From: an uncultured Bdellovibrionales bacterium
GTDB lineage: Bacteria > Bdellovibrionota > Bdellovibrionia > Bdellovibrionales > SG-bin7
Length of the DNA stretch: 44,140 nt
Assembly (NCBI GenBank): GCA_964415155.1
Contig: CAYPZY010000001.1
Span: 1 to 44,140 of the forward strand
Reading direction: 5' to 3'
The stretch's first letter is position 1. The number at the start of each line of letters is the position of its first letter. A program made the position numbers and the translations under genes. Positions 4,768 to 23,938 of this stretch are shown here, piece by piece. The notes under the pieces were generated by a model. It had not been told where the DNA came from. It did no database searches and was given only the letters and a program-made list of their open reading frames with translations.

Positions 4768-5196
4768 ATGACTGAAGAACAATTTAAAAGCCTAATAAAC
4801 GCCCAAACTAAAAAAGAATTTGATGTCCTTTTCAAAAAGGGAGTCGAATACACTCAAGCCTCCAAAGATAAGTTGATTAATTTTAAAGAGACGGCGGCTT
4901 ATATTCAAATCACCACTCTTCAGGCATGGGCAGTTCATTTCTACAAACATATCACAGCTATCTTCAGTTACATCAAAAGAGAGAAAACTCTCTCGGAGTC
5001 CATTCAAGATCGAATCCTAGATGCCCGCAACTATCTCCTCTTACTGCTCGCCATTATTCAAGAAAAAGAAAAAACTCCGAAAGATGCACGACAATTAAGT
5101 TTAAATTTCCGAAAAAGGAAAGCCGCTTCTAGGAGGAAGAAGCGGCTTATCGATGAGCCGAAGGGCGGGAAGGTCCCTTCTACGAAGGAGAATTAA
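4768..5196 (+). CDS. all-alpha DUF1599/MazG-like protein (tentative) with basic tail
   Basis: The pattern NF...QAWAVHFYKHI...ESIQDRILDARNYLLLLLAII resembles DUF1599 / NTP-pyrophosphohydrolase-like helices. Its stop overlaps the stop of the convergent holin gene. Confidence 0.35.
   Translation: MTEEQFKSLINAQTKKEFDVLFKKGVEYTQASKDKLINFKETAAYIQITTLQAWAVHFYKHITAIFSYIKREKTLSESIQDRILDARNYLLLLLAIIQEKEKTPKDARQLSLNFRKRKAASRRKKRLIDEPKGGKVPSTKEN
5110..5148 (-). terminator. Rho-independent terminator candidate for the minus-strand late operon
   Basis: A perfect 11-bp stem (5120-5130 / 5138-5148) encloses a 7-nt loop. On the minus strand it is followed by UCCUUUUUC. It lies 45-80 nt past the holin stop, inside the 3' end of the convergent gene. 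Confidence 0.5.
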
Positions 5197-5387
5197 TCTT
5201 TAACAACAGTCAGCGCTGGTTCATTCTTTTTACTCAATCCCCTAGAAATCGCATAAGCTAAAGACGAAATCGAACTTGCGATTACCGCGTACTTTGGATC
5301 TAAATGATCCATCAAAACCGCCGCCGTTGATCCGATAATTACAAAAAAACTTACCCAAAACTCACTTGTTTTCCATCCTGACTTCAT
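5193..5387 (-). CDS. holin candidate (64 aa, two hydrophobic segments, charged C-terminus)
   Basis: Two TM-like stretches (FWVSFFVIIGSTAAVLM and YAVIASSISSLAYAI). GGGGGAG SD upstream. It lies immediately downstream of the endolysin gene. Confidence 0.55.
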   Translation of the reverse strand: MKSGWKTSEFWVSFFVIIGSTAAVLMDHLDPKYAVIASSISSLAYAISRGLSKKNEPALTVVKD

Positions 5388-5399
5388 ACTCGCTCCCCC

Positions 5400-5783
5400 T
5401 TATTTTAAAATCGGAACCTGAAGATGAAGATGAAAATTACCACCCTCCCCATGCGCCAAAGCCGTGGGTCTTCCATCCGTCCTCGGATACCGACGATTAA
5501 TAGTCTCAACCATTTCTTTAATTTTACTTTTATCAGGGAAATCATTCAAGCGAATATCCACAGCGCGACCGTCTTCGTGAGGGGAGACAGTGGCGGTTGT
5601 CTTGCCTTCGGCCTTGAGACTTGCCTGCTGAGCCGCTGTCCTGCGCACGCAAGTGACAACCATTGGGTGCTTATGCTCCGCGAACAAAGTAGCTACGAAG
5701 CAAGTAATTGTTTGGATGCGAGTATTGGCGTGTAAGAATTCTTCTAAGAGAGGGTCTAACTTAAAATTTATTTCAATTTTCAT
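5400..5783 (-). CDS. endolysin, peptidase M15 (VanY / LAS-type zinc peptidase)
   Basis: SPHEDGRAVD matches the SxHxxGxAxD signature, and the C-terminal HLH supplies the HxH zinc ligand. ATGA coupling to the upstream gene. Confidence 0.7.
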   Translation of the reverse strand: MKIEINFKLDPLLEEFLHANTRIQTITCFVATLFAEHKHPMVVTCVRRTAAQQASLKAEGKTTATVSPHEDGRAVDIRLNDFPDKSKIKEMVETINRRYPRTDGRPTALAHGEGGNFHLHLQVPILK

Positions 5784-8700
5784 GGGAGGTTTTCCCTGAT
5801 AGAATCAGTTAAGTCTCTTCGAGCGCGATCAAAGGCCGAACGCTTTTTAACCCTCGCACGCGCCGCAGCCTTCTTCCCCCAAATTACATCTTTAGCCAAA
5901 GCTCCAGGACGGTCTTCGTATACGTCCGTGGTAGCGGCTTTGAATGCGGGGCCAACGCTTTTATTTAATTGGAGGCCGCCGGGGACCGAAAGCATGAGGC
6001 CGGTCTTTGCGAGATTCTCTTTCGAGAAGGCTTTCTTCCTCGACTTCTCGTCCGCCATCGAAACGTATAAATCTTGCATGAGTCCATAATATCCGGGGAT
6101 GCCATACTTAAAAGTGTTCATGAATGGCACGAAGTTAGTCACATCATAAAACTTAGGGATTCCTGTTTCTTCCGAAATTGTATTTGCAATCTCAATCCCA
6201 GCCACCGCTTTGAGCATCGAAGCAATCCCGTTAGCGGCGCCCTCTGTTCGAATGATATGAGGGATGTCCGTGGAGATTGTGGAGGCTAGGTTTAGGGTGA
6301 AGGTCTGAAATTGGGAGAAGGCCTTCCCCACGCTCGACTGAAGAAAACTCGAATCGGATCTTCCAAGTTTGGAAATGTCCGCATGGATTTTATCCACCCA
6401 CCCATCCGCAAAATTAATGGCCTGCTCGGTGGAAGCTCCAGAGTTTTTTGCTTTCAAGTAAGCGGTATGGAACGTTATCTTTGCAGCCTGTTTATCGAAC
6501 AGGTTAGTTGCAAAGCGTCCTGTGTTCATTACAAAATCTTTTACAGCACCCGCGGCGTTCGCTGCGAATTGCGGAACTGCCTTTTTCAAAACTTGGTTAT
6601 TGAATTCTCGTCCTTCAAATCCTTCCATCTTGCTAATATCTCTCATAGACAAATTTCGTGATAAGGCAGCCACTTCACGCCCCTCTTTCGTAAATTGATA
6701 CGAAAGAGCGTGTACCGCTTCTTTAGCGCCCAAAGAGAAGTTTAAAGGATAAGTAGCGGCTTGCTGGGCCCAGTTATTTAAGTTAAATAAAATCGCCGAC
6801 TCACCTAATTTTTGTTTTACCTTATTGATTACTTTATTTGCGGTACCTGTAATTTGAGTGTCTAAAAATTCAGGCTTGTCCAGTAAATATCGATCTTTAA
6901 AAGTATCTAAAAATGTCCGTAAATTATTCGGTGCAAAGCGCATTGACACATCAATCTCACGCACAAGATCGCTCATGTGAATTCGTTTTAAAGCAGGCTC
7001 AACATATTTTAAGAACGCACCAATGGCATCATCTTTAAACTCACCGCCAGTCCTTTTAAATTCATACTGAAACCGAGTCTTTGCATCTTTTGATTTAAGT
7101 GGAAGTTCAGTACGAATCACGCGTGTGTTAAAGTCTTGCTCTAACTTTGATAGGTCTCCTTTTTTAAGGAGCGTTCCAATCACTTCAGATAAAATATTTT
7201 GAGACTCTTGAAAGTGAGTAATGTAATCTTCACGCTTGGCAACGGTTGGAAAATTTAAAGACTTCATCACCGTATTAATTCTGCCAAAAAGATCGTCATA
7301 CATCCCTCGAAGAATGGGGGCACCCGCTTGAATTTTCTGTTTGGTTTTTTCAGGTAAATTGATCCACTCGTCGCTCGTTTGATTTAAACGTTTTTCAACA
7401 AATCGTTGCATCAAAGCAGACTCTTGCGTGTTCGCTTTGATACCGATGCTCGATAATTGTTTTTCCAACACCTGCCGCTCTTGATCGATTTTCATTTCTC
7501 TGACATGCAAAGAATTTCCAATGGAATCCCAGACCGGATTATTGGGACCAAATTCCTTCGAGAGTTTTCTCCAAACGTTCGCGGTATTTAAAAATGGAAC
7601 CCCAAAAGCCTTATTCACATTGTCTGCAATATCTCTCCCAGACACAAGCATCGCGTCCATTAAATTAGCGAGCCCGGAATCTTTCTTAATAAAATAAGGA
7701 TTGTCATCCCCTCCAAAAATTCTACCCACATCCTTATTTTCCAGAGGAGTAAAGTCACTTGTTTTGCTCGGCACGTAAACAGTGTCCAAAACTGTATCGA
7801 CCCTACTCTTTAACGCCGGGTCCAAAGTTTCATAAGCCGTGGATTCTTTATTCACCGTGCTCTGCAACTGAGACGCCCGCTGAGAATTCTCCGTCATTTG
7901 ATGCTTCAAAGTTGTGAACTGAGATTTTAATTCAGGGTCGGTAGAGAATTTTGGATCAGCCTTCAAAGTTCGCATTTGTTTAGAAATTTCTAAACGTTTT
8001 AAAGCGAGAAAACTTTGCTCTTCAGTTGCGCTCTTTAATTTCAAAGCACCCTGCAAAGAAGGCAATGTATCCGCATCCGCGTAAACAAACATGCCATCTT
8101 CAGCATTTTTATAACTATCCAAAAGTGTTTGGTGTAAATTTTGATTAAACGTAGTGGCTGTTTTGAGCACTTGATTGACATCCGCAAGTTTACTCAGGTC
8201 TTTAAAATCAAGCGTATTGCTCACAGCCTTGAAGCCAGCGCTTAGCAAATCATCGATAATACCATTGGCCTCTTCTTTATTTAGTCGTCGATTTTGGACG
8301 CCTTTAGAGCCAATAGTGCGTAAAATTCCACTGCCACCAGCTTCTTTTAAAGCTTTCAAGGCTTCTGGAGTTTTTGTGGTCAAGTAATCCATCACCAAAC
8401 CCTGATTGAGGTTGGGATATTGTCCTTGCTTACGAGAGACTACTCGCTCAGAGATTAACTTATTCATGGTCTCCGAGGTGGAAACTAGGGGAATTTGCAT
8501 GTAGCTCAAAGCATCTTTGCTGTTTTTGATCTGATTCCTTAATAGATTGCTCGTCGCAGCGTAAGCATCTGTCCACAAACCTGCGTCTACTAACTTTTTA
8601 AGAGCTGGAGTCGCTTCAACTAATTGCCCGATTACTGTGTCTGGATTGTTAAAAATATCTTGGCCGATCTTTCGCAACTCTGCCTCGCCTGTTTGCTTAA

Positions 8701-10090
8701 GCAAAGCAGGGTTCGCCAAAATTCCAAGCTCTGGTGCAATGTCTGGGGCCAGTCCTTTAAGCTTATTGAAAGTATTGTAGGCTTGGTTCTGCTCTTTGGT
8801 GAGAGTGCCCGCCTTTGCGCCGGCATCTAAAGTGGCGACCACCTCATTGACAGTGGCAGATTTTGACAATCTTTGAGCCACTTCGTCTTTTGCGACCGCT
8901 TGTGCGGCGACTTTTGCGCGAAGTTCTTGGGGATTGCCCAAAAGTGGGCCTTCTTTCCCTGCTGGACGTACCTTTAAGCCGCCCAATTTGCCAAACCCAA
9001 CCGCTACCGGCTGTAAAGCCATCGCACCAGCACCAAAAACCAAAGCATCCGAGATTCCTTGGGCTACCAAATCTTTAAAACTATATTCTCCGGTATCGTC
9101 GGTTGCCATTTTGACACCACCTTTAATGGTGCCAGTTACACCGCCAATCAAAGAACCTTCAATCCCAGTTTGAATAGTAGAGAGCACTGCTCCCTTTAAT
9201 CGTTGCCCTAATAATTGTTTGGAAATTTGCCCAGCGGCTTCGATATTTCCGGCGGCTTTAGCTGTAGTCTTCAAAACTTTCAAACTCTGTACTGTTTCAC
9301 GTGCAACATTTGTACTTTTTGCGACCGTGGAGATTAAAGGTAATTTTGAAATAAAGCTTGTGCCCGGAAGTCCAATCGCTAAACCACCAAGAATGGCCCC
9401 CACATTCGCCACTGACTGAATGTCTTGACTAATTCCTGTCGTATCCGGTTCGGGCACAATTCCAAGGGTCACATTGCTCGCCAATTTTTGAAGAAAGAAA
9501 TTATTTACTTTAACTCTGTCAGGCAAACTCTTCCAAAAACCACCGAAATTGTTCGCCGTGTAAGCATAAGCCTCACCCACATGTGCGGCTGTTTTTGCCG
9601 TTTTATCCCAAGCTTGAGCCAGTTTGTCGTAAGTAGATAATTCTGAAGTCTTTTGGTTCGCAATATTTTGGAGAGATTTCGATTGTTCGGTGGAGGTTTT
9701 TAAATCTTTGACTTGGTTAAAACCTTGATCGGAAGTGGTGACTATCCCTTGCTTTTTCTGCTCTGTAAAAGCAACGGCAGCATCCATGGGAAGCTTACCG
9801 CTCTTCACTGCCTCAATGATCTTTGGAGAATTTAAAATCTTGCCTTGAGCCACCAGAGCGTCAATGGACTCATTTCCTTGAGCCTTTAAATCAGCAACGT
9901 CCTTTTTTTGAAATGCAGATTGAGGTTTCTGAGGAGCCTCTACTGGCGCAGGACTTCCCTCTGATTTCTTACCTTTCCAAAAAGCTAAAGCCTCACTTAA
10001 AGGAAGCTCACCCTTCTGAATGGCTTGAATCATTTTTGGAGAGTTTGGGAGGTCTCCTTGCTGAACTAATTGATCTAGATTTTCAGCCAT
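5780..10090 (-). CDS. large virion internal/ejection (or tape-measure-like) protein, 1436 aa
   Basis: It is the longest ORF and the last structural gene before the lysis genes. It contains Gly-rich hydrophobic segments (VGAILGGLAIGLPG, ALVFGAGAMALQPVAVGFG) and a duplicated N-terminal 39-aa module. Confidence 0.6.
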   Translation of the reverse strand: MAENLDQLVQQGDLPNSPKMIQAIQKGELPLSEALAFWKGKKSEGSPAPVEAPQKPQSAFQKKDVADLKAQGNESIDALVAQGKILNSPKIIEAVKSGKLPMDAAVAFTEQKKQGIVTTSDQGFNQVKDLKTSTEQSKSLQNIANQKTSELSTYDKLAQAWDKTAKTAAHVGEAYAYTANNFGGFWKSLPDRVKVNNFFLQKLASNVTLGIVPEPDTTGISQDIQSVANVGAILGGLAIGLPGTSFISKLPLISTVAKSTNVARETVQSLKVLKTTAKAAGNIEAAGQISKQLLGQRLKGAVLSTIQTGIEGSLIGGVTGTIKGGVKMATDDTGEYSFKDLVAQGISDALVFGAGAMALQPVAVGFGKLGGLKVRPAGKEGPLLGNPQELRAKVAAQAVAKDEVAQRLSKSATVNEVVATLDAGAKAGTLTKEQNQAYNTFNKLKGLAPDIAPELGILANPALLKQTGEAELRKIGQDIFNNPDTVIGQLVEATPALKKLVDAGLWTDAYAATSNLLRNQIKNSKDALSYMQIPLVSTSETMNKLISERVVSRKQGQYPNLNQGLVMDYLTTKTPEALKALKEAGGSGILRTIGSKGVQNRRLNKEEANGIIDDLLSAGFKAVSNTLDFKDLSKLADVNQVLKTATTFNQNLHQTLLDSYKNAEDGMFVYADADTLPSLQGALKLKSATEEQSFLALKRLEISKQMRTLKADPKFSTDPELKSQFTTLKHQMTENSQRASQLQSTVNKESTAYETLDPALKSRVDTVLDTVYVPSKTSDFTPLENKDVGRIFGGDDNPYFIKKDSGLANLMDAMLVSGRDIADNVNKAFGVPFLNTANVWRKLSKEFGPNNPVWDSIGNSLHVREMKIDQERQVLEKQLSSIGIKANTQESALMQRFVEKRLNQTSDEWINLPEKTKQKIQAGAPILRGMYDDLFGRINTVMKSLNFPTVAKREDYITHFQESQNILSEVIGTLLKKGDLSKLEQDFNTRVIRTELPLKSKDAKTRFQYEFKRTGGEFKDDAIGAFLKYVEPALKRIHMSDLVREIDVSMRFAPNNLRTFLDTFKDRYLLDKPEFLDTQITGTANKVINKVKQKLGESAILFNLNNWAQQAATYPLNFSLGAKEAVHALSYQFTKEGREVAALSRNLSMRDISKMEGFEGREFNNQVLKKAVPQFAANAAGAVKDFVMNTGRFATNLFDKQAAKITFHTAYLKAKNSGASTEQAINFADGWVDKIHADISKLGRSDSSFLQSSVGKAFSQFQTFTLNLASTISTDIPHIIRTEGAANGIASMLKAVAGIEIANTISEETGIPKFYDVTNFVPFMNTFKYGIPGYYGLMQDLYVSMADEKSRKKAFSKENLAKTGLMLSVPGGLQLNKSVGPAFKAATTDVYEDRPGALAKDVIWGKKAAARARVKKRSAFDRARRDLTDSIRENLP

Positions 10091-10091
10091 A

Positions 10092-11138
10092 TTATCTCGA
10101 CTTATTTACTGTGGTCGGGCTAATTTTTACTTTCCTCTTCGAAAAAGCCATCGCTTCATCCAATAAACGATCCTCTTCATTCTCTGCTCCAAAAATACGT
10201 TTTGCACTACCCCTCATCGTGGTGGTCATAACAGCATTATTCGAAGGCATTGAAACGCCGATCTGCCTATCATCGTAAGACTCAATCAAAGAAGGATCGT
10301 CCTTTGAATAAACAGGCTTATCCACCAACGCTCCAACGCCGCCTGTTAAAAAAGTGCTACTCACGTTATTAGCCATGCTGTTTGCATAGCCCGCATTTAA
10401 CGGATGCCCCAAAACAGGGTCGCCACGAACCACATCATGAGTAACGGTGTAGAGTTGATCGACGATAGCGTTGGTAATATTATTGTCAATCTCTCCACGA
10501 GAAGACATTTCTGCCAATTGAGATTTAATTGGTTTGCCTGTTTTAAAAACAATATCTTTCCCCTTCAAATTTTTAATCCCAGTTTTTTTTGCCCAATCTT
10601 GAAGTGCTGGAAGGAATTGATTACTTCTCATGAAATATTCATTTTGAGTGACCGTCCCACCAGAAGCTCCACCACCGCCACCGGAGCGGCCAGCAGCCCG
10701 AAGCAACAAACCACCACCCTCGATTTCTCCAGCGGCTTCGCCCTTGGCCTTCATCTTTGCATCCGTAAATTTCCAGTTCTCAAAAGCTTGCAAGGTAGCC
10801 GCAGCGGCCTGCCTGATTTTGGGGTCAGCGGTTTGCATTGACTTTCCCAAAAGCCAAAAAACAGCCTCTTCGGGCTTCATGTCTTTTAAAGCTCCGAGAG
10901 CTTCCTTTTCATCCCCAATGCCCTCTTCGAGGGCACGAGCAGCAAACCTCGTGGCGGGCGTGCTCACCGCTTCTGGTTGAGCTAAAAGCTCAGTGCCCAG
11001 CTTTTGACGAGCAGCCTTAGTCTCTGATTCTTTTTGTAGAGCAATCGCTTCCTTGCGCTTTTCCTCTTTGCGATCTTGGCGAGTTTTTATTCCGCGCTGA
11101 AGCAGCTCTAAACCGCCTAACAAATCTGAAGTAGCCAT
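10092..11138 (-). CDS. virion internal-protein candidate (348 aa) with poly-Gly tract
   Basis: The ORF is tightly packed between two other internal-protein candidates. It contains a GRSGGGGGASGG tract and a charged helical N-terminus. Confidence 0.5.
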   Translation of the reverse strand: MATSDLLGGLELLQRGIKTRQDRKEEKRKEAIALQKESETKAARQKLGTELLAQPEAVSTPATRFAARALEEGIGDEKEALGALKDMKPEEAVFWLLGKSMQTADPKIRQAAAATLQAFENWKFTDAKMKAKGEAAGEIEGGGLLLRAAGRSGGGGGASGGTVTQNEYFMRSNQFLPALQDWAKKTGIKNLKGKDIVFKTGKPIKSQLAEMSSRGEIDNNITNAIVDQLYTVTHDVVRGDPVLGHPLNAGYANSMANNVSSTFLTGGVGALVDKPVYSKDDPSLIESYDDRQIGVSMPSNNAVMTTTMRGSAKRIFGAENEEDRLLDEAMAFSKRKVKISPTTVNKSR

Positions 11139-11142
11139 AAAT

Positions 11143-12786
11143 TTAAAATAATGAAGTGCTTAAACTCGCTCCATAATTTCCTAAATTATAAGGGGAAAGA
11201 GACGGTGCTGGGGTTGGGGAAGCTAGCAAAGAGGCGGAACTTCTTCCACCGCTCGGTGCTGGAGCGCCACCTCCGCCTCCGCCACCACCCCCGGCACCCA
11301 TAACCACACCTGCCAAACCTGCACCTGCACCAAGCAATTGCGTGAAAGCATCTAAGAAACCACCCTTGGTAGTTTGAGTAGTTTTCGCCTCTGCTAATTG
11401 TTTATTCTGTTCTACTCCTAACTGACTCGCTACAGGGTTCAATAAAGCGTTCGATAAATTTAAAGCATTGATATTTTGATTCGCGCCAAATGACAACGCA
11501 CCGCTTCCCGCATTCATTAAAGCCGGCAAATTCCCGTAAGCTAAATTCTTAATCTCATCCATTTTCGCTTTTTCAAGACCTAACAAAGCATCCGCCCTAC
11601 CGCCTTCAATACGCTCTCTCTTCTCGCCCTGAGAAGCCGCAAGTTTCGCACGAGCCTCGCCAACACCTTGAAGCTTATTGCCTTGAGACTCTGCCAAACT
11701 CACGCGCGCAAGGGAAATTTTTTGCTTACCTTCTTCGACGGCTGCGGTGATATTTAAAGCGCCTTCTGATTCCCGAACAGCCGCTTCATTTTCAAGCATC
11801 CTTAAAGCGTCTGTCTTGATTTTTAAAGCTGAGACCTTTTCAGCTTGGGAGCCTGGGGGGAGACCTAACAAAGCCGCTTGCTGTGCAGCTCTTTGGTCTG
11901 CCTGTTCTGAAAGTAAATTAAATTGAAATTTTGCACGTTCATAAGAGGACTCATTTACGCGCCTAAGAGCTGTAGTTAAAACCTCACCGCTTTGATTGTA
12001 ATTCACTTCTGCGGCCCTTAAAGCATCTTCAACATCAAACCCAGTTTGGTTAATTTGATCGACTAAATCATTTAGAGATTGAGTAACTGATTCTCCCGTT
12101 TGAGAACTTATCTGCAAAAGATTATCCACCGACGCATTCACCACATTACGAATCGGCGCTATGTAGGTGTCTACCTGAGCTGCCTGTTCTGGAGTAAAAC
12201 TCATATCTCCAGAAGTAAATTTTTTCACATTCGTTAAAAATTGATGTTCAATATCCGCGGTAGACTCTACTTTAAAAAGTTCTTCTTGCTTAATTTGCTG
12301 ACGCATCCCAGCGACTTGGTCAGAGCCTTCTCCGTAACGATCAATAGCTGCCAACACACGAGGGTCTTCTTTTTTCTTCAACTGATAATCGGTGTAGGTT
12401 ACTTGCTCCATTTCAGCGAGAGCTTGCTGTTTACGACTTAACTGTTCTTCCAATGACCTTAGATTACCACCGCCACCACCCCCGGCACCAAAACCTCCGC
12501 TCACACCACCCCTACCTGTAAAACCAGCGCCACCACCAGCAGCCGGTCCAGCCGCTTGCTGCGCACGAGCATCCGCGACCTTACCTTGCAATTCCGAAAT
12601 TTGATCTTTTAATAAATTCGCTTCTCCTTCATTTCGGTATTTAGTCTTTTGAGTGGGATTAACATCGTACCCACCAATCTCTTGAAGGTTGGAAAGCATG
12701 ATCTGAGTGAACAAAGCGTCGTAGCTTTCTCCACGGGCAGAAAGAGGGGCTAATTCAGTTTTAGTCTCAGTTTTTTTATCACACAT
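11143..12786 (-). CDS. coiled-coil virion internal-protein candidate (547 aa) with two poly-Gly tracts
   Basis: Long Ala/Gln/Glu-rich helical sequence with GFGAGGGGGGN and GAGGGGGGGGGAPAPSGG tracts. Its start overlaps the GNAT stop by 8 nt. Confidence 0.5.
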   Translation of the reverse strand: MCDKKTETKTELAPLSARGESYDALFTQIMLSNLQEIGGYDVNPTQKTKYRNEGEANLLKDQISELQGKVADARAQQAAGPAAGGGAGFTGRGGVSGGFGAGGGGGGNLRSLEEQLSRKQQALAEMEQVTYTDYQLKKKEDPRVLAAIDRYGEGSDQVAGMRQQIKQEELFKVESTADIEHQFLTNVKKFTSGDMSFTPEQAAQVDTYIAPIRNVVNASVDNLLQISSQTGESVTQSLNDLVDQINQTGFDVEDALRAAEVNYNQSGEVLTTALRRVNESSYERAKFQFNLLSEQADQRAAQQAALLGLPPGSQAEKVSALKIKTDALRMLENEAAVRESEGALNITAAVEEGKQKISLARVSLAESQGNKLQGVGEARAKLAASQGEKRERIEGGRADALLGLEKAKMDEIKNLAYGNLPALMNAGSGALSFGANQNINALNLSNALLNPVASQLGVEQNKQLAEAKTTQTTKGGFLDAFTQLLGAGAGLAGVVMGAGGGGGGGGGAPAPSGGRSSASLLASPTPAPSLSPYNLGNYGASLSTSLF

Positions 12787-13252
12787 TTTCTAAAACCTTA
12801 AAATATTCAGAAGAGAATTTAAGATACCCTTTACTCAACGCAAAATCATTTCCCCTCTGAGAATTGTTAGAAACAATTTCTGTTACCCCAAATATAGCAA
12901 ATTTCGCACCCTTTTGCTTCCCCCAATTTTCAAATTCCGCTAACATCTCAGCCCCTATCCCAAGGCCTTGATACTCAGGGAGAACATAAGTATAAAGCTC
13001 TGCGGCCACTAAATCTTTAGTAAAAGGATATTGTGTTACCTGTCCTAAAAATGTCCCAACCGCCTTCCCATCCATAAATGCACAAACAAAAAATTTATTA
13101 GGATTAACTGAATGATCTTTTAAAGTATTTGTAAATTCTTCAGGGCTTGCAGTCGAGGAAATTAAATGAAAGCCAGTGGCCTTTATACAGTGCAAAGCAA
13201 GGTCAATAATAGTTTGAGACAATTCAGTAACCTCTATTATCTCTAGCGCCAT
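12779..13252 (-). CDS. GNAT-family N-acetyltransferase
   Basis: The acetyl-CoA motif-A-like sequence YQGLGIGAEMLAEFENWGKQKG follows beta-strand-rich VCAFMDGKAVGTF. The size (157 aa) is typical of the family. Confidence 0.65.
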   Translation of the reverse strand: MALEIIEVTELSQTIIDLALHCIKATGFHLISSTASPEEFTNTLKDHSVNPNKFFVCAFMDGKAVGTFLGQVTQYPFTKDLVAAELYTYVLPEYQGLGIGAEMLAEFENWGKQKGAKFAIFGVTEIVSNNSQRGNDFALSKGYLKFSSEYFKVLENV

Positions 13253-13518
13253 CTTGTGCTTTTCCTTCCTCGATTAAATTTTACACTAGTCACTCTTAAA
13301 TTACTCGAAGAATTTCCAGCCTTCACTCCATGAACATGATCCACATCTTTCCCAATTAAATATTTTTTTCCATATTTTTGGATCATTTTATTACGAGCCT
13401 TCATACGAGGATAACGATTATCTTTTTGCGCCTCTGTCCGCTGAGAATATTCGGTCACATAATTTCTAGGGTATGTATACGTTTTGCCGTTTTTCTTTAC
13501 ATGTTTGGTTCCAATCAT
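13243..13518 (-). CDS. basic 91-aa protein with HNH-like motif (tentative)
   Basis: GKDVDHVHGVKAGNSSSNLRVTSVKFNRG has DH ... N ... N spacing reminiscent of HNH/His-Me finger nucleases, but no Cys zinc site. It overlaps the GNAT start by 10 nt. Confidence 0.35.
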   Translation of the reverse strand: MIGTKHVKKNGKTYTYPRNYVTEYSQRTEAQKDNRYPRMKARNKMIQKYGKKYLIGKDVDHVHGVKAGNSSSNLRVTSVKFNRGRKSTRWR

Positions 13519-13622
13519 ATAAATTAACGCCTTTTCTATGCACGTCGTCTACCGGCAGCGGCCATACTTGCCATTTTTTTAGCACCATTGATTTTGTTTT
13601 CAATTTTTGCCATATTCTTATT

Positions 13623-13961
13623 ATGAAAAGTAGAACTTATTATTTCAATATCTATAAAAAATTTAAAAAAATAAGTTGTGAAAAATGTTTTAATAATAAA
13701 AATTTAATTGTCCATCATCTAGATGACGATATGACAAATAACGTTCCACAAAATTTACAAACTCTTTGCCGACGATGTCATCAAATTGAACATAAATGTT
13801 GGTTAAATTTTCCAAAAAATCTTGTTCCATGGAATAAATTAAAACCTCAAAAATGCAAATGGTGCACAAAGGAATTTATTCGTCATGGTGGAAATATAAA
13901 CCAAAAATTTTGCAGTAGACATTGTTTTATGAAAAATAGAAATTCTATTTTCTACCTTTAG
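13623..13961 (+). CDS. free-standing HNH homing-endonuclease-like protein (112 aa from ATG 13623)
   Basis: CEKCFNNKNLIVHHLDDDMTNNVPQNLQTLCRRCHQIEH is a canonical CxxC-HH-N-N-CxxCH HNH motif. It is the only plus-strand gene inside the 25-kb minus-strand block and is visibly AT-rich. Confidence 0.75.
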   Translation: MKSRTYYFNIYKKFKKISCEKCFNNKNLIVHHLDDDMTNNVPQNLQTLCRRCHQIEHKCWLNFPKNLVPWNKLKPQKCKWCTKEFIRHGGNINQKFCSRHCFMKNRNSIFYL

Positions 13962-14041
13962 CTGCTAATTTTTGAAATTTTATTTTTCCATATTTTTTGC
14001 GCCCAATTGTCGCTGCCAATCCACCCGGATTAGTCACCCCT

Positions 14042-14269
14042 TTACGAGTTGACAATTTTTTCTTTAATGCTTTGAACCGTGCTCCCGATCCCAGCTTTGC
14101 TTTCATGAGCGACTCCTTCTTTAATTAAATTTTCTTTTTGAAATGCTTCTTGAATTTTTATAAAAATATTGTCGCATGCACGAGCATATTTTAAACCCAT
14201 TGAACGAGTAGCGGCATCGAGGATGTTAATTAATTCGTTAACCTCTTTATTATTTAATTCAAGTTGCAT
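14042..14269 (-). CDS. hypothetical protein (75 aa) downstream of fibre gene
   Basis: ORF with an AGGAGAG SD-like site upstream. Helical composition. Confidence 0.5.
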   Translation of the reverse strand: MQLELNNKEVNELINILDAATRSMGLKYARACDNIFIKIQEAFQKENLIKEGVAHESKAGIGSTVQSIKEKIVNS

Positions 14270-14300
14270 TTACTCTCCTATCAAAAAATAAAATTTATCT

Positions 14301-15494
14301 TTATACATCGGCCACTCTAAATGCGACCTTGTATAAATCTTCCACATTAACATCAGCGCAATGGATTGATCTTGAACCTATATTTACAGAAAGAAGATTT
14401 TGTTTTTGCAATTTTATTAAATTTGAACCCGCAACAAGATTGAAAACCTGAGTTATAGTTACAGGGACATTAAGACCTGGAACACCTGTTGCTAGCTGCA
14501 TTAAAACTCCAGCTTGGAATCTTGTCCCATTTTCAGTTGGAGAAACAAGCCTAAATGCTGTATTTGTTTGCAAAGCAGTATTTATAACTCCATCAACCTC
14601 TAGTGTGAATTTAAAAATAACTAAATAATACCCAGCCACCCCCACACTTACTGTAAGAGCTGCATTCGTGGCATCTACATCGGCAAACGCTCCATCGGTA
14701 GTAGCCCCAATATCAATATTAGCTGTATTATAAGTGTTAGTGGTAAGCCCGTTTGTCCTAAGATAAGGCTTTGCACTTGATCCGTCATGAGCTTGTAAAA
14801 CACCACTTACCAAAGCTAAAGATCTATTCGCCGCAGGAGCTGAAGTTGGAAGTAAGATTGGCCCATCAACAGTAGTAGTTCCACTCAAAGTTACACCTGA
14901 CAAAGAAGTCCCACCTTCTGCATTCGAGCTGTGGTCATGAACTGCATCCGTCCAAAGACTGTCCCAATCCGCTTGACCAATAACTAAAAGAGTACCTGCC
15001 ACGTCTGGCAATGTCCAAATACGATTCGCAGAATTTGCATGGTCAAAAGTGCCAGTGAAAGCAGTCCCAGAATTAAAAACCAAATTATCCGTGAAAGTTT
15101 TACTAGTTAAATTTTGAACACCTGTTGTTAAAACAAAAACTCCAGATAAATCAGGGAAAGTAAAAGTGCGAATATCCGTCAAACTTAACGTACTTAAAGT
15201 CCCTGAATTTCCATCCGAATTAACAGTAAAGGTATCGGATGAAGTCCCAGAAATTGGAGTCGCTCCGGCAGCTAATAAATTTATTCTTTGCTCTAAAGAT
15301 TGAGATAAATTTGCTACACCATCATTGTCGAATTCATAACCTGCAACAAAACAATCTTTGCTGAGTTGAGTTAAGTTTAAATTAATTGTAAAAAAAGATT
15401 CTTCAGCAGCCTCTCTCCAAGCATCTAAGTTTTGCTCAAATAGAACACGAGCATTCGCATATTCTTTTGGTAAAACCACATCTTCGAGCGCCAT
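14301..15494 (-). CDS. tail fibre / receptor-binding protein candidate (397 aa)
   Basis: The N-terminal motif QL..D.F...Y.FDNDG..NL is shared with the upstream 248-aa gene. The protein is Thr/Ser/Gly-rich and beta-type, and its C-terminus (AGYYLVIFKFTLEV...) resembles a jelly-roll tip. Confidence 0.55.
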   Translation of the reverse strand: MALEDVVLPKEYANARVLFEQNLDAWREAAEESFFTINLNLTQLSKDCFVAGYEFDNDGVANLSQSLEQRINLLAAGATPISGTSSDTFTVNSDGNSGTLSTLSLTDIRTFTFPDLSGVFVLTTGVQNLTSKTFTDNLVFNSGTAFTGTFDHANSANRIWTLPDVAGTLLVIGQADWDSLWTDAVHDHSSNAEGGTSLSGVTLSGTTTVDGPILLPTSAPAANRSLALVSGVLQAHDGSSAKPYLRTNGLTTNTYNTANIDIGATTDGAFADVDATNAALTVSVGVAGYYLVIFKFTLEVDGVINTALQTNTAFRLVSPTENGTRFQAGVLMQLATGVPGLNVPVTITQVFNLVAGSNLIKLQKQNLLSVNIGSRSIHCADVNVEDLYKVAFRVADV

Positions 15495-15498
15495 ATAA

Positions 15499-16245
15499 TC
15501 ACCACACTTTCATAGCTGAAAAGTAAGTAGCTCTTTCACCCAAAACAACATCCAAAGCACCGCCGCTATTTTGATAAACGTACACCTCATAATAATCGCC
15601 CACACTCGCGGAATCGTCAGCACTAATTTGAAGAAAAGAATCAAAGCCCGCGGAAGCTGTCGGGGAGACATAAGAAGCAATCTTACTTCCATTTTTATAA
15701 ATGTGCATCTCTCTACGGCCCGTTGCATTTGACGCAAATCTTGCTTGTGCGTGAAATTTATAAATACCAGAACCTCCGGCAGGGATAGTCAAACGACTGG
15801 GGTTCGTCGAGTTATCGTGCATTGCTCCCACGTCGTAAGTTTCAGATAAAAAAGAAAGCACTGTTTCTGTGGCGTCGGGAATTGATTGGTTACTAGTCAC
15901 TCGCCAAACACGAGCACGCATTTGACCACTCGAAGAAATTGTAGATAAATGAGTGACTGGATTTTCAAACGCAACATTCTGCTCAAAAGTCCAACTTCCA
16001 GTAACATGGTCATCACGACCCAATTTTGCAAAAGAATTATAAATTGGAGAATCTAAATTATTTAAACCATCATTGTCGTACGTATAAGAAGGATCAAAAA
16101 TATCTAACCGAAGTTGCTCCATATTGTTTGCAAAATATGTGGTGAGATAAGTTTCAATCGAAGTCATTGCAGTATTTAAATGTACCTGTCTTAATATTTT
16201 TAAAGCCTGATAATTTTCAGTTACATTGAGTGGAATAATTGCCAT
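15499..16245 (-). CDS. tail fibre / receptor-binding protein candidate (248 aa), C1q/TNF-like C-terminus (tentative)
   Basis: It shares the N-terminal DNDG..NL motif with the 397-aa protein. Its C-terminal pattern GIYKFHAQARF ... IYKNG ... GDYYEVYVYQNSG resembles gC1q/TNF jelly-roll tips. Confidence 0.55.
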   Translation of the reverse strand: MAIIPLNVTENYQALKILRQVHLNTAMTSIETYLTTYFANNMEQLRLDIFDPSYTYDNDGLNNLDSPIYNSFAKLGRDDHVTGSWTFEQNVAFENPVTHLSTISSSGQMRARVWRVTSNQSIPDATETVLSFLSETYDVGAMHDNSTNPSRLTIPAGGSGIYKFHAQARFASNATGRREMHIYKNGSKIASYVSPTASAGFDSFLQISADDSASVGDYYEVYVYQNSGGALDVVLGERATYFSAMKVW

Positions 16246-16247
16246 AA

Positions 16248-17822
16248 TTAAGCTACCGTCGTCCCCATCACGTTTGGAGACACCCGGTCCACGTCTAAGA
16301 TTAATCCTAAAAACTCAAACCCTTCTTCCCCATCCACAAAAGACTGTCCTTTGTGTTCTAAGAAAAACTCATAAATCATGCCGCTTCCCTTAACTTCTTT
16401 TTTAGAAACGTTCACTTTAGGAATCCCTCCAAGAACTGACTGCCCTGGTATAAAGTCTACTCCAAGAGAGTCCCCAAGGGAAGTATCTTCCATGTTGAAA
16501 GTTAAAGTTTCTATCGTTCTCCCATCAATTTTATAAGTAATCGTAAAACTACCTTTCAACTGAGGAACAAAAACAGCCGTTAGATTTGAAAAGCAAAATT
16601 GATCCTGAACCATGCCGGAAGGAGTAATCAAACCACTTTGAAAAGTAAGATTAAAAGGAATGCCATAATCAGTCGTCTTCGTTTCATCCAACACCCCCAA
16701 CTGACCCGTTTTAGATCCAACCATAGTTCTAACACGCTTGGTAATTGGATCTAAATATCTAAACAAACAGGTATGGTTAAAGTTTCTCCACTTATACCAT
16801 TTCTTTGCCAAAATTGAATATCCCCACACCGAATCAGGGTAGAGTCTCGAAATGGATGGGAACGCGACAATGTAAGAACTAAGGGTCCTATCGTAGGCCG
16901 CATACATATATTTCGCACGATTGAAATTTACTCCATTTACCCATTCTGGCTGAATCTGAGACGAAACGAAGTCCGTCTCCACTTCCGATAATTTGTCAGT
17001 AGAGCTTAAAACATGGACCCCTAAATCGGAAGGAAACATAATCACCGAACTAATCGCGACGACCGCATTGTGACTTAGGCACCCGATTCCATCGCTGATT
17101 TTAGTAGGGGCGAATTGAAGCGTTCCATCGCTTAAGAATACAGGAGAAATTTTATATAAAGAAAATCGCTTAGTAACATAAAGTGCTCCCTGAGCACCAA
17201 AAAAAGGAGGAAAAATTGCGGTGAGGCCATCCGGGTTATCGTCATTAACATCAAGGTCAATCGACCCAGAATCACCGCCTGTAAAGTCCACTGTACCAGT
17301 ATTTGAGTGCAAAAGACGACCTGGGACGGTTGGGTCTGGGAGCCATAATTTATTTAACCAAACACGTCCAAAAGGAGCATTGGGAGCAGTCGCAGAGAGG
17401 TCTACAATATTACCACTCTGAGTCCACCGTTTAGGTGCGAAATTCCCACCACTGAAGAAAATAACCAAAAGACCTTGAAACGCTAAAAAAGAAACAACTT
17501 CGTTTTGAGGTAGCGAATAAGGACCCGTGATATCATCAAGCACACCACTAGGATTAAATGCGTAAAGACGATTACCATTGTAAGCTACTGTCCTCTGCGT
17601 GCCCAATCTAAAAAAATCAAACCCAGAGAGAATTGGGCGGCCTCCAGGAACTACTGCTTGAAACTGTTTTTTTAATCCCGGTCGTTTTTTTTTAGTCGAA
17701 TAGGTCGTGTAAATAATATTATCGGACGAAACAATATCGTCAGGTCTAATTAGGAGAGGATGCTTTGTGGAATCTTGAGACCCATCATAAGGAACCAGTT
17801 TTAATTCAGCTAAAATATCCAC
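16248..17822 (-). CDS. virion structural protein (524 aa), tail module, function unassigned
   Basis: Long ORF packed 2 nt from its neighbours in the structural operon. Beta-rich composition. Confidence 0.55.
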   Translation of the reverse strand: MDILAELKLVPYDGSQDSTKHPLLIRPDDIVSSDNIIYTTYSTKKKRPGLKKQFQAVVPGGRPILSGFDFFRLGTQRTVAYNGNRLYAFNPSGVLDDITGPYSLPQNEVVSFLAFQGLLVIFFSGGNFAPKRWTQSGNIVDLSATAPNAPFGRVWLNKLWLPDPTVPGRLLHSNTGTVDFTGGDSGSIDLDVNDDNPDGLTAIFPPFFGAQGALYVTKRFSLYKISPVFLSDGTLQFAPTKISDGIGCLSHNAVVAISSVIMFPSDLGVHVLSSTDKLSEVETDFVSSQIQPEWVNGVNFNRAKYMYAAYDRTLSSYIVAFPSISRLYPDSVWGYSILAKKWYKWRNFNHTCLFRYLDPITKRVRTMVGSKTGQLGVLDETKTTDYGIPFNLTFQSGLITPSGMVQDQFCFSNLTAVFVPQLKGSFTITYKIDGRTIETLTFNMEDTSLGDSLGVDFIPGQSVLGGIPKVNVSKKEVKGSGMIYEFFLEHKGQSFVDGEEGFEFLGLILDVDRVSPNVMGTTVA

Positions 17823-17827
17823 GATTG

Positions 17828-18859
17828 TTATCCCGTTTCATGAATGCGGGAAATCCAATGCAATTGCTTTCTCCTATCGCAGTCCCGCAATCGTCTGTAC
17901 CGATAACCATTCACTACCATTCTCGGCTTGCTTTCCGACTTTTTCTGTTCAGCTCTCATTTCTTTTAAAAGATCTCTAGCCTTACGCTGCTCACGATCTG
18001 CTGACTGTTGCTGGCCATTTCTTTGATACCACTCATAAAGCGCATCATGAACAAGTATCCACCGATTATCAATTGGCATTAAAGGGACTTGATCCGTCTC
18101 AGTAAGCGGCTCAACTTTCAAAGAATAATCAATATGAAAAATAGTTCTTTGAAGAGGCTCAATCGGATAAATTCTTAATTTTTCACCAACATCTGTAGTA
18201 TTGCCACCTAAAAAATCATAATCCAAAACCTCCACATCAAGTGGAGGAATACTCTCATAACTAATTTGCCCATCAACGGTCCAAAGAGAAGGATCTCCAA
18301 TCCACTCAGTGCTTGTGGATAAAATCCTATTAAACTCCACAACGCTAGAATAATCTAACTGCCCACCATTCGAAAAATCATAATAATTATAATTATCGAT
18401 ATAAATTTGATTTACTCCATCACAATCTGGAGGAACTGGAAATTCATAACGATAAATTTTATAACTCGCGCCTGCGGCTGTGGGACCCACATATCTTGTA
18501 TCTAAGATAATTGAATTCGCACCAATATCCACGCCAATAATCCGATACAATTCTGGACGAGTGGCCGATTTAAAAGTTCGATCTTGTAAATTTTCTGTAA
18601 CCGTTAAACCCACGAATACAACCTCACGACTATCTAAAGTAACAGTACAAGTCCCGGTTGATATAGCAGGCTCAATCACTTCCGATCGTTCAAACTTTCT
18701 CCATGTCCAATTCCTCTCAGTGGCAATTGTCATGTAAGATTCGTTGATCGCTGAAGTAAAAAAATCACGTACACTAGTTTGAACCGTTCCTTGTTGTTTG
18801 GCTCGGTTCTCACAAATATCTATAATATTTCCAAAAGTTCGTGGAATTGTAACTGCCAT
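17828..18859 (-). CDS. virion structural protein (343 aa), tail/adaptor module, function unassigned
   Basis: ORF contiguous with the tail-module genes. No enzymatic motif seen. Confidence 0.55.
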   Translation of the reverse strand: MAVTIPRTFGNIIDICENRAKQQGTVQTSVRDFFTSAINESYMTIATERNWTWRKFERSEVIEPAISTGTCTVTLDSREVVFVGLTVTENLQDRTFKSATRPELYRIIGVDIGANSIILDTRYVGPTAAGASYKIYRYEFPVPPDCDGVNQIYIDNYNYYDFSNGGQLDYSSVVEFNRILSTSTEWIGDPSLWTVDGQISYESIPPLDVEVLDYDFLGGNTTDVGEKLRIYPIEPLQRTIFHIDYSLKVEPLTETDQVPLMPIDNRWILVHDALYEWYQRNGQQQSADREQRKARDLLKEMRAEQKKSESKPRMVVNGYRYRRLRDCDRRKQLHWISRIHETG

Positions 18860-19132
18860 TTAATTTGCCCTAGATATTTTTTTATCTATTTCTTTTAACT
18901 GATCTTTAACCTCTGTTAAAATTTCCCGAATAAATTTTATTTCTTCTTTGCTCGCATACTGTTCACGAACTTCAATTCTGAAATTTTCGATTGTCTTTTT
19001 ATTGTCGTCTTTAATCGCACCCAGTGCATTAAAATAAGAAGAAAGTCCGCCAATCAAAGAAATAAAAATTGACAAAAGAATAGTAATCCAAAACTTTTTA
19101 TCTTCATTTCTCATTATCCGATCACCATCCAA
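18860..19132 (-). CDS. small membrane-anchored coiled-coil protein (90 aa)
   Basis: TM-like segment FWITILLSIFISLIGGLSSYF followed by a charged helix. The gene is AT-rich relative to its neighbours. Confidence 0.5.
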   Translation of the reverse strand: MDGDRIMRNEDKKFWITILLSIFISLIGGLSSYFNALGAIKDDNKKTIENFRIEVREQYASKEEIKFIREILTEVKDQLKEIDKKISRAN

Positions 19133-19596
19133 TCGAATGTAGAGGTGTCTAAAACGTTTATAGTTCCATCCGCGATGTTTGCCCTCACAACGAACGAAGT
19201 TCCAACGCTACGATCTGCGGAAGGAGCCGATAAACTTACTGTTAAATTTCCAGCCCCAGGACTTGCATCTTTCAAGGTCACAACGATTCTGCTATTTGCC
19301 GTAATTGCTGCGGTGATCGTTACTGTTCCAGCATTTAAAGTATCCGATCCTGACAAAATCCCAAGATTGGTTCTTGAAGTACCAGCGCTTGCTACATCTG
19401 AAAGATTGGAAGATCTTTGACAGCTTGAACCCAACACTGAAGCCGCAGCGCCAGCAGTATCAAAAGCTCCAGCCGCTTCGACGGCTGCCGTGCCTAATCC
19501 TAAACTTGTTCTCATGGCAGAGGCCGCAGAGGCATCCAAAGGATTAATATCTGCCACTCGATCCAAAGTATTATTGCCCATGTCTAAAGTAGCCAT
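19114..19596 (-). CDS. fibre-like structural protein (160 aa)
   Basis: Ala/Gly/Ser/Thr-rich, with the repeated motifs RTSLGLGTAA and RTNLGILSGS that are common at phage fibre N-termini. Confidence 0.45.
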   Translation of the reverse strand: MATLDMGNNTLDRVADINPLDASAASAMRTSLGLGTAAVEAAGAFDTAGAAASVLGSSCQRSSNLSDVASAGTSRTNLGILSGSDTLNAGTVTITAAITANSRIVVTLKDASPGAGNLTVSLSAPSADRSVGTSFVVRANIADGTINVLDTSTFDWMVIG

Positions 19597-19597
19597 A

Positions 19598-21217
19598 TTA
19601 TGTGTACCTCATCTTAATTTGAACGAATATGTCTTCAGCGGTACTTGCGGCATCCGAATCAACTTGCAGCCCAATTGCGTCACCTGCGGCTAGTCCTGCC
19701 AATGCTGAAGTGACAACCAAAGAACTACCATTGGTAATGGTTCCAGTGACTCCGGTTGCTACACCATTCACAAGCACTGTATAAGTATCCGTATGAGCCG
19801 CACCGTTTCCAATGCGGCTTGCCACTCGAAGTTCATCGATGTAAGCTGGAGAACGATCACAAATCATGAGAGGGAGAATTTGAGATTGAAGTTGATCGCC
19901 CGAAAAATAACGAGTGACTCCAGTTGGGATAGTACCTAAATGGCGAGCCGTTTGAGTGACTCTATATCTAAAATCACATCCAAAATTATTATCGGCGCTT
20001 TGTAAATATTCGTACCAAAATTGAGGAATGAATGTGGAAGAAATAAAAGCTAAGTCACCTTTCCTGACCGTGGCAGGTGTAGTGCCTGTGAGATTATAAG
20101 TTGTCACTCCGCTTGTAGCCCCCAAAAAACGACTGTTCTCAGTGATCCTTGCAATACATCCACAATCATTCATATTCCAAGTATTGTTAGGATTGTCTTG
20201 AAATATTCCACCATTTGTAATGCGAATTGGTTCGCTAAAATCATCTAAATTTATTGTCATGGAAGTAGACATATTTATATGCCCACCTGACCCAGCCGAC
20301 ACAAAAGAAGTTGCACCGTTGCCTGTCATATTCCATGTGCCACCGCCTGCAAAACCAAGTAATGAAAAATTAGAAGCTTGAAAACATGTCCCTGTTATGC
20401 CAGTAATTGTAAGCCCAGATAAAAATAAAAGAAAAGATTGATTAGCTGTAGTGAAAGCATTTACCGGGGAAGTGATTATTCCTCCCGCAGTAGAAGCTAG
20501 CCATGTTCCTCGTGACTGTTGAGATAAACTGATCGCCGTTCCACAATCAGTAAAATTGCAATTTTGAACAAAAATATTTGAACGTTGTGCTGAAATTCCT
20601 GTATTTGCCCCGGTTCCTAAAAAAGTTATTCCATTAAATAAATAACTCGAATTTACATTTGTTAAACTAAATATAGTGGAGCCACTACTCAAAACCACAT
20701 TTGCAGGCGTAGCAGCATTCCCAACTATTGAAATTTTAGAACTTCCATATGTTGAACTTAATGCAGGACCATAATAATCACGAGCTACAATTGTCTCAGG
20801 ATAAGTGCCATCTGCAAGATTGATAACAATATCCCCTGGACCTAAAAGAGGAATTTGAGCTAAAGCAAAAGCAAGGGTCTGCCAAGCATTGCCTGCACCA
20901 GCAGATAACCCAGTATTTGCATCATTCCCGTTCACCACATCCACAAATCGAGTAACCGTAGACGGTGTTGTGTCCGTTTGAAATCCTTGCACATTCGTAA
21001 CAATGCCTGTGTTTGGATCTCTAATAAAATTCACATTTGCTTGTAAAGTATCTGCGCTACCCCAGATAGGAACCGAATTGGCTGACCCTGTGCCCACCGC
21101 TCCGACTTCTGTGGCCCCAGTGAGTGCTAAAACATCTCCCACGTTCGTTCCAACGGCAACCGTGACTGCGCCACCTCCACCGCCACCTGTACCTCTTGTA
21201 GGATATTTAACTGGCAT
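19598..21217 (-). CDS. tailspike candidate with right-handed beta-helix (pectate-lyase-like) repeats
   Basis: PbH1-like repeats (ITFLGTGANTGISAQRSNIFVQNCNFTDCGTAISL, SGLTITGITGTCFQASNFSL). N-terminal GGGGGG linker. Confidence 0.55.
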   Translation of the reverse strand: MPVKYPTRGTGGGGGGAVTVAVGTNVGDVLALTGATEVGAVGTGSANSVPIWGSADTLQANVNFIRDPNTGIVTNVQGFQTDTTPSTVTRFVDVVNGNDANTGLSAGAGNAWQTLAFALAQIPLLGPGDIVINLADGTYPETIVARDYYGPALSSTYGSSKISIVGNAATPANVVLSSGSTIFSLTNVNSSYLFNGITFLGTGANTGISAQRSNIFVQNCNFTDCGTAISLSQQSRGTWLASTAGGIITSPVNAFTTANQSFLLFLSGLTITGITGTCFQASNFSLLGFAGGGTWNMTGNGATSFVSAGSGGHINMSTSMTINLDDFSEPIRITNGGIFQDNPNNTWNMNDCGCIARITENSRFLGATSGVTTYNLTGTTPATVRKGDLAFISSTFIPQFWYEYLQSADNNFGCDFRYRVTQTARHLGTIPTGVTRYFSGDQLQSQILPLMICDRSPAYIDELRVASRIGNGAAHTDTYTVLVNGVATGVTGTITNGSSLVVTSALAGLAAGDAIGLQVDSDAASTAEDIFVQIKMRYT

Positions 21218-21227
21218 GAATCACTCC

Positions 21228-21569: not shown

Positions 21570-21586
21570 AAATTAAAACCCCTTTT

Positions 21587-21624
21587 AACAAAAAGGGCGG
21601 GTAGGTTCATCACCCAACCCGCCC
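21587..21624 (-). terminator. Rho-independent terminator/attenuator candidate after the capsid cassette
   Basis: On the minus strand, GGGCGGGU ... ACCCGCCC (21595-21602 / 21617-21624) forms an 8-bp GC stem followed by UUUUUGUU. It sits in the 81-nt gap after the 271-aa gene. Confidence 0.55.
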
Positions 21625-21650
21625 AAATATTTCCAGCAAGGAAGCTAAAA

Positions 21651-23926: not shown

Positions 23927-23938
23927 AGTATGTACTCC

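Follow-up and report, generated by a model that had tools for sequence, protein, structure and literature searches.

Why should a small acetyltransferase gene stand directly ahead of the genes for proteins that a phage probably ejects into its host? The question is raised by the gene at positions 12779-13252, on the minus strand, of contig CAYPZY010000001.1, which belongs to an assembly of an uncultured Bdellovibrionales bacterium (GCA_964415155.1) and is called the window here (the whole stretch analysed, 44,140 nt). The window is a complete podovirus-like phage genome of ~44.1 kb, and the gene encodes a 157-aa protein of the GNAT acetyltransferase family. An earlier note on this DNA, made from its letters alone, described the gene as embedded in an operon for virion internal proteins and offered two roles for the product, either an enzyme packaged in the virion and delivered with the DNA, or one that modifies virion proteins during assembly. 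The note missed that the gene occupies a known and widespread slot, which is conserved and is held by gene 13 in T7, gene 14 in P22, gene 13 in epsilon15 and ORFS in VpV262. An acetyltransferase-fold gene that opens the internal virion protein (IVP) module has already been described (Hardies et al. 2016, PMC4819975), and the window contributes the member of another lineage. Based on the comparisons given below, we put at roughly 0.68 the probability that the GNAT is the occupant of this slot, the IVP-A slot, and would serve as an assembly-time helper of the ejection-protein module rather than as an injected enzyme.

The product of the gene is a genuine GNAT, and transferase activity is predicted for it. 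The open reading frame (ORF) contains the motif YQGLGIGAEMLAEFENWGKQKG, as read from the sequence, and the protein includes the stretch VLPEYQGLGIGAEMLAEFENWGKQKGAKF; motif A (QGLGIG, Q95-G-L-G98-I-G100) is intact and lies at the junction of beta4 and alpha3. The protein matched PF00583 (Acetyltransf_1) with an E-value of 1.6e-10 and 41.7 bits, above the gathering cut-off of 20.7, PF13508 with 30.5 bits against a cut-off of 27, and phrog_1249, 'acetyltransferase', with an E-value of 2.7e-16. Both Pfam profiles being above their cut-offs, the searches did not yield the non-GNAT fold on which the earlier note would have abandoned its claim. An AlphaFold2 model, built from an alignment with six homologues, reached a mean predicted local distance difference test score (pLDDT) of 84 and a predicted template modelling score (pTM) of 0.82, and it has the GNAT-type alpha/beta topology with the strands and helices in GNAT order. 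When this model was used in Foldseek, 200 viral and 730 PDB matches were obtained at E<=1e-3, the top ones listed being GNATs, and the probability was 1.00 for many viral and solved GNATs. The slot GNAT of VpV262 was found at rank 14, and homologues of T7 gp13 ('host specificity protein A') from CR8 and ICP3 were matched with E-values of 2.6e-6 and 7.5e-6. The profiles, the model and the Foldseek matches together confirm the 157-aa GNAT with motif A that had been read from the sequence. Across 13 clade members (alignment A3), the pyrophosphate loop for acetyl-CoA, R/Q-x-x-G-x-[G/A/F/S], has been retained at overall identities of 25-38%, which suggests selection for cofactor binding.

Searches of the PDB by sequence and by fold pointed to no specific substrate class. 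The structural neighbours include many protein N-terminal acetyltransferases, along with aminoglycoside and uncharacterised GNATs that score equally well. The N-terminal acetyltransferases (RimI/RimJ/RimL, archaeal Ard1, Naa30/50/60) are among the best PDB matches and are likewise minimal, single-domain proteins of similar size. Unlike RimI, however, the window protein scored only 16.2 with TIGR01575 against a cut-off of 86.4, and the other NCBIfam equivalog cut-offs were not reached either (PhnO, 20.4 versus 142; AAC(6') group E, 16.8 versus 140). According to the AlphaFold2 model, the protein is a bare catalytic domain of 157 aa with no extra targeting or packaging domain. A search of the literature for the substrate of an IVP-A GNAT turned up no paper.

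The GNAT gene is tightly joined to the ejection-type genes for the 547-, 348- and 1436-aa proteins (Table 1) and is predicted to be expressed late. It shares ATGTGTGA with the gene for the 547-aa protein, an overlap of 8 nt, and ATGGCGCTAG with the 91-aa ORF upstream, an overlap of 10 nt; both lengths had been given correctly in the earlier note. The block runs continuously from 13518 to 5400 with gene spacings of -10, -8, +4, +1 and -4 nt. The composition of the gene is native to the late operon, with a GC content at third codon positions (GC3) of 0.29 against 0.24-0.36 in the adjoining late genes. The spacings and the GC3 value uphold its placement in one late operon with the three proteins. 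No family match above threshold was found for these proteins in Pfam or PHROG, and none among GenBank phages for the 1436-aa protein; their position, size and hydrophobic features suggest that they are ejection or internal virion proteins. The 547-aa protein carries a C-terminal, glycine-zipper-like hydrophobic segment (residues 477-502), and the 1436-aa protein carries two Gly-rich hydrophobic segments (residues 223-250 and 341-367).

The same arrangement is found in relatives of the phage. An exhaustive HMMER search placed the closest full-length GNAT homologues at 29-38% identity, and the genomic context was readable for two members of the clade, the metagenomic relatives L011 and L012. In L012, a GNAT of 161 aa comes after a 99-aa protein, and three proteins follow it: one of 512 aa that shares 39% identity with the 547-aa protein, one of 353 aa, and one of 1632 aa that is 27% identical to the 1436-aa protein. 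In L011, the tail hub (52% identity) is followed by proteins of 250 and 388 aa, three small genes, a GNAT of 158 aa and the start of a homologue of the 547-aa protein. The joints downstream of the GNAT are equally tight in these two, with 4-nt gaps or overlaps. Homologues of the 547-aa protein with 39% identity stand directly after the slot gene both in L012 and in L008, another metagenomic relative, in which a protein of >1278 aa, in the same position as the 1632-aa protein of L012, is 23% identical to the 1436-aa protein. Two further relatives from IMG/VR, L005 and L006, end just after the first fibre gene, before the slot region.

More distant phages show the order as well. In Alcaligenes phage vB_Af_QDWS535, the GNAT gp16 is followed by proteins of 354, 332 and 1190 aa and then by a lysozyme; in Roseobacter phage CRP-901, the GNAT gp34 is followed by gp33, gp32 ('virion structural protein') and gp31; and in Vibrio phage VpV262, the GNAT encoded by ORFS overlaps ORFT by 8 nt, and a 1536-aa 'internal virion protein' follows. 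The GNATs of L011, L012, QDWS535 and CRP-901 matched phrog_1249 with E-values of 4e-15 to 7e-21, and the slot GNAT of VpV262 belongs to the same PHROG. A tight downstream joint between the GNAT and the ejection-protein genes is thus conserved across very divergent phages, and the synteny that the earlier note had proposed to look for in related phages was found in L011, L012, QDWS535, CRP-901 and VpV262. A literature search found neither a virion proteome for CRP-901 nor a paper on QDWS535.

The nearest counterparts among described systems are the other phrog_1249 GNATs of this slot (VpV262 ORFS, SIO1/cobavirus pc40, CRP-901 gp34 and QDWS535 gp16), which, as in the window, immediately precede two or three large proteins and a lysin. 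The GNAT beside the IVP genes of SIO1 and the cobaviruses was equated with T7 gp13 (Bischoff et al. 2019, PMC6775973). VpV262 ORFS overlaps the next gene by 8 nt, as the window gene does, and aligned with the clade profile in hhalign at E=1.6e-4. The differences are that these GNATs are only ~20-40% identical to that of the window over parts of the protein, that the ejection proteins of their phages are not detectably homologous to those of the window, and that the first protein after the slot in VpV262 has 203 aa rather than 547 aa.

The classical IVP-A proteins are comparable in a broader sense. It was reported that T7 IVP-A matches acetyltransferases, that homologues of IVP-A occupy the syntenic position in P22 and epsilon15, and that the slot in phiRIO-1-like phages is filled either by a gene of the acetyltransferase family or by an alternative unrelated to it (PMC4819975). 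T7 gene 13 (138 aa, PF11090) lies between tail tubular B and gp14-16, and P22 gene 14 (151 aa, PF11039 DUF2824, 'head morphogenesis') lies between gp10/gp26 and the ejection proteins gp7/gp20/gp16. Members of this class (T7 gp13, PF11090/phrog_308; P22 gp14, PF11039/phrog_651; epsilon15 gp13) resemble the window protein in size (138-154 aa against 157 aa) and in opening the ejection-protein module after the tail genes, in an order that is the same in P22, T7, epsilon15 and VpV262. They also resemble it in acetyltransferase fold, for which the references are PMC4819975, the RefSeq note on epsilon15 gp13 that records an HHpred match to GNATs, and the Foldseek matches to the gp13 homologues of CR8 and ICP3. 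In contrast to P22 gp14 and epsilon15 gp13, which were judged by eye to be without the loop, the window GNAT keeps the full Q-x-x-G-x-G loop, and in the window, fibre genes and two HNH genes are interposed between the hub and the slot.

Several observations weigh against placing the window GNAT in the IVP-A class with an assembly role. It had no HMMER match at E<=10 to PF11090/phrog_308 or PF11039/phrog_651, and hhalign of the clade profile against T7 gp13, P22 gp14 and epsilon15 gp13 gave probabilities of <=1% (single-sequence templates, low sensitivity). Only fold and position link it to T7 gp13 and P22 gp14, and in Foldseek, generic GNATs reach equally high scores. The occupant of the slot also varies. 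In the metagenomic relatives L008 and L009, which represent one sister lineage, an unrelated 146-aa protein stands there, ahead of a 534-aa protein with 39% identity to the 547-aa protein. This alternative slot protein (146-157 aa, phrog_21390) is encoded at 13981-14421 in L008, at 14123-14563 in L009 and at 5369-5842 in Achromobacter phage CF418P1 (L027, OQ817832.1), a lineage distant from that of L008 and L009. The model of the L008 protein is an all-helical bundle (pLDDT 72), for which the PDB gave no significant match. Since the slot accepts an unrelated, helical occupant, acetyl transfer may not be essential to its role. Such a replacement resembles phiRIO-1 gp39, the 'alternative to IVP-A'; the window itself, unlike phiRIO-1, carries the GNAT and not the alternative. 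MW202601 (MW202601.1, L004) has no GNAT in the slot: its 155-aa gene (25817-26284), downstream of the tail genes and ahead of a 494-aa gene, has no Pfam match and is not a GNAT. Finally, in Colwellvirinae-type phages, a phrog_1249-type GNAT precedes the portal gene instead of the ejection genes.

The genomes used in these comparisons yielded some further observations. The 155-aa protein of MW202601 has a hydrophobic N-terminus, MGVLETIAVITGIAGVLQG, which resembles IVP-B of the T7 gp14 type, and the protein looks IVP-B-like. Among the Colwellvirinae-type phages, which are T7-like, Marinomonas phage CB5A (L001), Pseudomonas phage Achelous (L002), L014 and L016 have the GNAT just upstream of the portal. 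The first internal protein of these phages comes after tail tubular B with no small gene in between, as though the slot gene had been relocated to the start of the structural module. In CF418P1, the 2684-aa 'putative portal' at 8822-16876 is in the position of the large ejection protein, and its annotation is probably wrong. Gp57 and gp58 of HTVC023P were considered as hidden GNATs and were rejected, since neither gave a GNAT match.

If the window GNAT works as an IVP-A protein, the following course of events can be proposed. The enzyme would act in the infected cell while the procapsids are being loaded. Most probably it would use acyl-CoA to acetylate, or otherwise acylate, one ejection-type protein, the foremost candidate being the one in the IVP-B position; it might instead, or as well, chaperone the ejection proteins. 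As a result, the ejection proteins would be incorporated in a form able to exit the capsid and enter the host envelope, and the GNAT itself would stay out of the finished particle. We infer its absence from the virion and its morphogenetic role from T7, where gp13 is described as needed for morphogenesis and as not retained in virions, in the passage of PMC4819975 that cites Kemp et al. (2005). By this analogy, the assembly-time role proposed in the earlier note agrees with a published one, and its other proposal, the packaged enzyme, is disfavoured.

On that other proposal, the GNAT would be loaded into the capsid, injected with the DNA, and would acetylate a host defence protein, a translation factor or an amine of the envelope. 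The gene is co-expressed with, and translationally joined to, the genes of probable ejection proteins, its product has an intact motif A loop, and phage GNATs that inactivate host proteins exist, such as AcrVA5 and the Rac protein of LUZ19. However, the protein lacks a targeting or packaging domain, its slot can hold a helical protein that does not look like an enzyme, the T7 equivalent is reported absent from virions in the passage just mentioned, and the slot gene of the phiRIO-1 group was called 'nonstructural' (Hardies et al., PMC4819975), all of which make injection of the enzyme quite improbable. The variability of the slot bears differently on the view that the GNAT fold is a scaffold which transfers no acyl group but binds the ejection proteins and escorts them into the procapsid. 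A non-catalytic escort of this kind is consistent with the unrelated helical occupant, with the absence of the G-x-G loop in P22 gp14 and epsilon15 gp13 (judged by eye) and with the Pfam name of PF11090, 'probable scaffold protein'. For the window protein it is unlikely, since the acetyl-CoA loop is kept in the GNAT clade at 25-38% overall identity and the protein passes the GNAT threshold in Pfam.

A host-directed auxiliary gene would have its late-operon location by chance and no link to the virion. This was in effect proposed for CRP-901, in which the acetyltransferase was read as an auxiliary metabolic gene (AMG) regulating host metabolism and its position was not remarked on (PMC10149686), and an anti-defence moron would be a similar case. 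The site adjoins two HNH-type mobile genes, and there is weak similarity to the PhnO, AAC(6') and RimI models. Yet all the NCBIfam scores are far under the cut-offs, the GC3 of the gene is that of its neighbours and unlike that of the HNH insert, the best homologues with readable context are phage slot genes and not bacterial genes, and the slot is kept across phages whose structural proteins are only 24-50% identical. An auxiliary gene placed here incidentally is therefore very improbable, and an assembly-time helper in the IVP-A slot is the reading we prefer.

A narrower version of the assembly-time role is that the slot GNAT would be a dedicated N-terminal acyl- or acetyltransferase for the first ejection protein. 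Among 15 lineages compared, the first protein after the slot starts with Met and a small residue in 12, and with Met-Cys in four: the window (MCDKK), T7 gp14 (MCWAAA), epsilon15 gp14 (MCSPAI) and QDWS535 gp17 (MCGFID). The Met-Cys start sites are at 12781-12786 in the window and at 3729, 11586 and 13207 in L023, L025 and L019, respectively. In L012 and CRP-901, the first protein after the slot has Cys at position 4 or 5, and in most other lineages it starts with Met and Ala, Gly or Ser. Cys at position 2 has a background of 1.6% among the 546 ORFs of the same phage loci, so that 4/15 has a nominal P of ~9e-5, to be read in the knowledge that the pattern was spotted post hoc and that the lineages are not independent (the IVP-B proteins of T7 and epsilon15 are homologous). 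L011 has the GNAT but no such start in the next protein, and a dedicated enzyme of this kind is a tentative and somewhat unlikely idea. If it were true, capping of the alpha-amine (or of the Cys) would neutralise a charge and ready the protein for insertion into the host envelope.

For the window, the result is mainly one of correct annotation, in that the gene is probably an IVP-A-type assembly gene of a new podovirus lineage rather than a weapon delivered with the DNA or an auxiliary metabolic gene. Acetyltransferase-fold genes of this slot have been familiar for decades from T7 (gene 13) and P22 (gene 14). The canonical acetyl-CoA loop found here, together with the cultured phages CRP-901 and QDWS535, offers good settings for asking whether ejection proteins are modified before packaging.

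Table 1. Features of the window around the GNAT gene, listed by descending position.
Feature	Coordinates	Strand	Basis and remarks
524-aa tail-hub protein, P22 gp10 type	16248..17822	-	Synteny anchor; 29% identity to 'phage stabilization protein' of MW202601
Two fibre-like genes (248, 397 aa) between hub and ejection module	14301..16245	-	PHROG tail-fibre and minor-tail matches
HNH homing-endonuclease gene, AT-rich, inserted just upstream of module	13623..13961	+	ORF 13473-13961 matches Pfam HNH and HNH_3 weakly, below threshold
91-aa HNH-like small gene	13243..13518	-	phrog_4590 E=2.3e-13; weak HNH_3 match; overlaps GNAT start by 10 nt
157-aa GNAT acetyltransferase, probable occupant of IVP-A slot (T7 gp13 / P22 gp14 position)	12779..13252	-	Pfam, PHROG, AlphaFold2, Foldseek
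547-aa first ejection/internal-protein candidate (IVP-B position)	11143..12786	-	Gly tract, coiled-coil regions, Met-Cys start
348-aa second internal-protein candidate	10092..11138	-	4-nt spacing from 547-aa gene; 353-aa protein in same place in L012
1436-aa large internal/ejection-protein candidate (IVP-D position)	5780..10090	-	Position, size, hydrophobic segments
127-aa M15/L,D-endopeptidase-like lysin, last of block	5400..5783	-	phrog_465 endolysin E=8.9e-6; overlaps 1436-aa gene by 4 nt
Terminator-like hairpin, 11 pairs and T run, 3' of late block	5120..5148	-	Consensus scan; pattern match only

Upstream of the GNAT, the genes differ from phage to phage. No homologue of the 91-aa HNH-like gene was found upstream of the GNAT in L011, L012, QDWS535 or CRP-901, and the gene is thus lineage-specific and not a conserved partner of the GNAT; relatives carry unrelated small genes at this place. 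Since conservation does not extend to the genes on the upstream side, the overlap of 10 nt with the 91-aa gene is a local accident. Of the earlier description of the gene as embedded in its operon, the downstream link stands and is conserved, whereas the upstream overlap, shared with a lineage-specific partner, does not carry the same meaning. The HNH gene next to it is a compositional outlier (GC 0.25 and GC3 0.18, with a GC of ~0.42 in the window), and a homing endonuclease was also drawn within the IVP module of Pf-WMP3 (Hardies et al. 2016, PMC4819975). Homologues of the fibre genes occur in the same order in L008, L010 and L011. The 524-aa hub shares ~50% identity with its homologues in L006-L011 and has a weak match to phrog_578, 'head closure Hc3', a label that P22 gp10 also bears. 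For the 127-aa lysin, weak sub-threshold Pfam matches to DUF5715 and Peptidase_M15_2 were obtained.

The window constitutes the whole of contig C1 in a bin of 607 contigs, and an exact direct repeat of 55 nt is present at its ends (1-55 and 44086-44140); it is therefore a complete, circularly assembled phage genome of ~44,085 bp. Its GC content is 0.418 against 0.429 in the rest of the bin, with a tetranucleotide correlation of 0.90, and a search for spacer-like matches to the other contigs of the bin found none. The late arm on the minus strand starts with a small terminase candidate, TerL, the portal, the major capsid protein (MCP) and several unassigned structural genes, and then the 524-aa hub. 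After the hub come the two fibre-like and two small genes, the HNH pair, the GNAT, the 547-, 348- and 1436-aa proteins, the M15-like lysin and the hairpin. Genes for a tail tube, a sheath or a chaperone frameshift were not detected in the window. The relatives of the MCP include the cultured phages HTVC023P and CRP-901, which belong to the short-tailed pelagiphages and roseophages. When 20 kb of the window was compared with GenBank phages by Megablast, there was no match, and the phage has no close relative in GenBank; word-based searches, together with IMG/VR, for close relatives of the GNAT and the 547- and 1436-aa proteins returned self-matches or nothing. The nearest GenBank phage is MW202601, with which TerL, portal, MCP and hub are shared at 24-29% identity.

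In a scan of the window for promoters and terminators, the counts were not above chance, and only the hairpin at 5120-5148 was convincing. Along the late arm (5780-24472, minus strand), 11 late proteins start with Met-Ala, and a Shine-Dalgarno sequence of the AAGGAG type precedes many late genes. In contrast to this usual pattern, the 547-aa gene has its Met-Cys start behind a weak AAGG.

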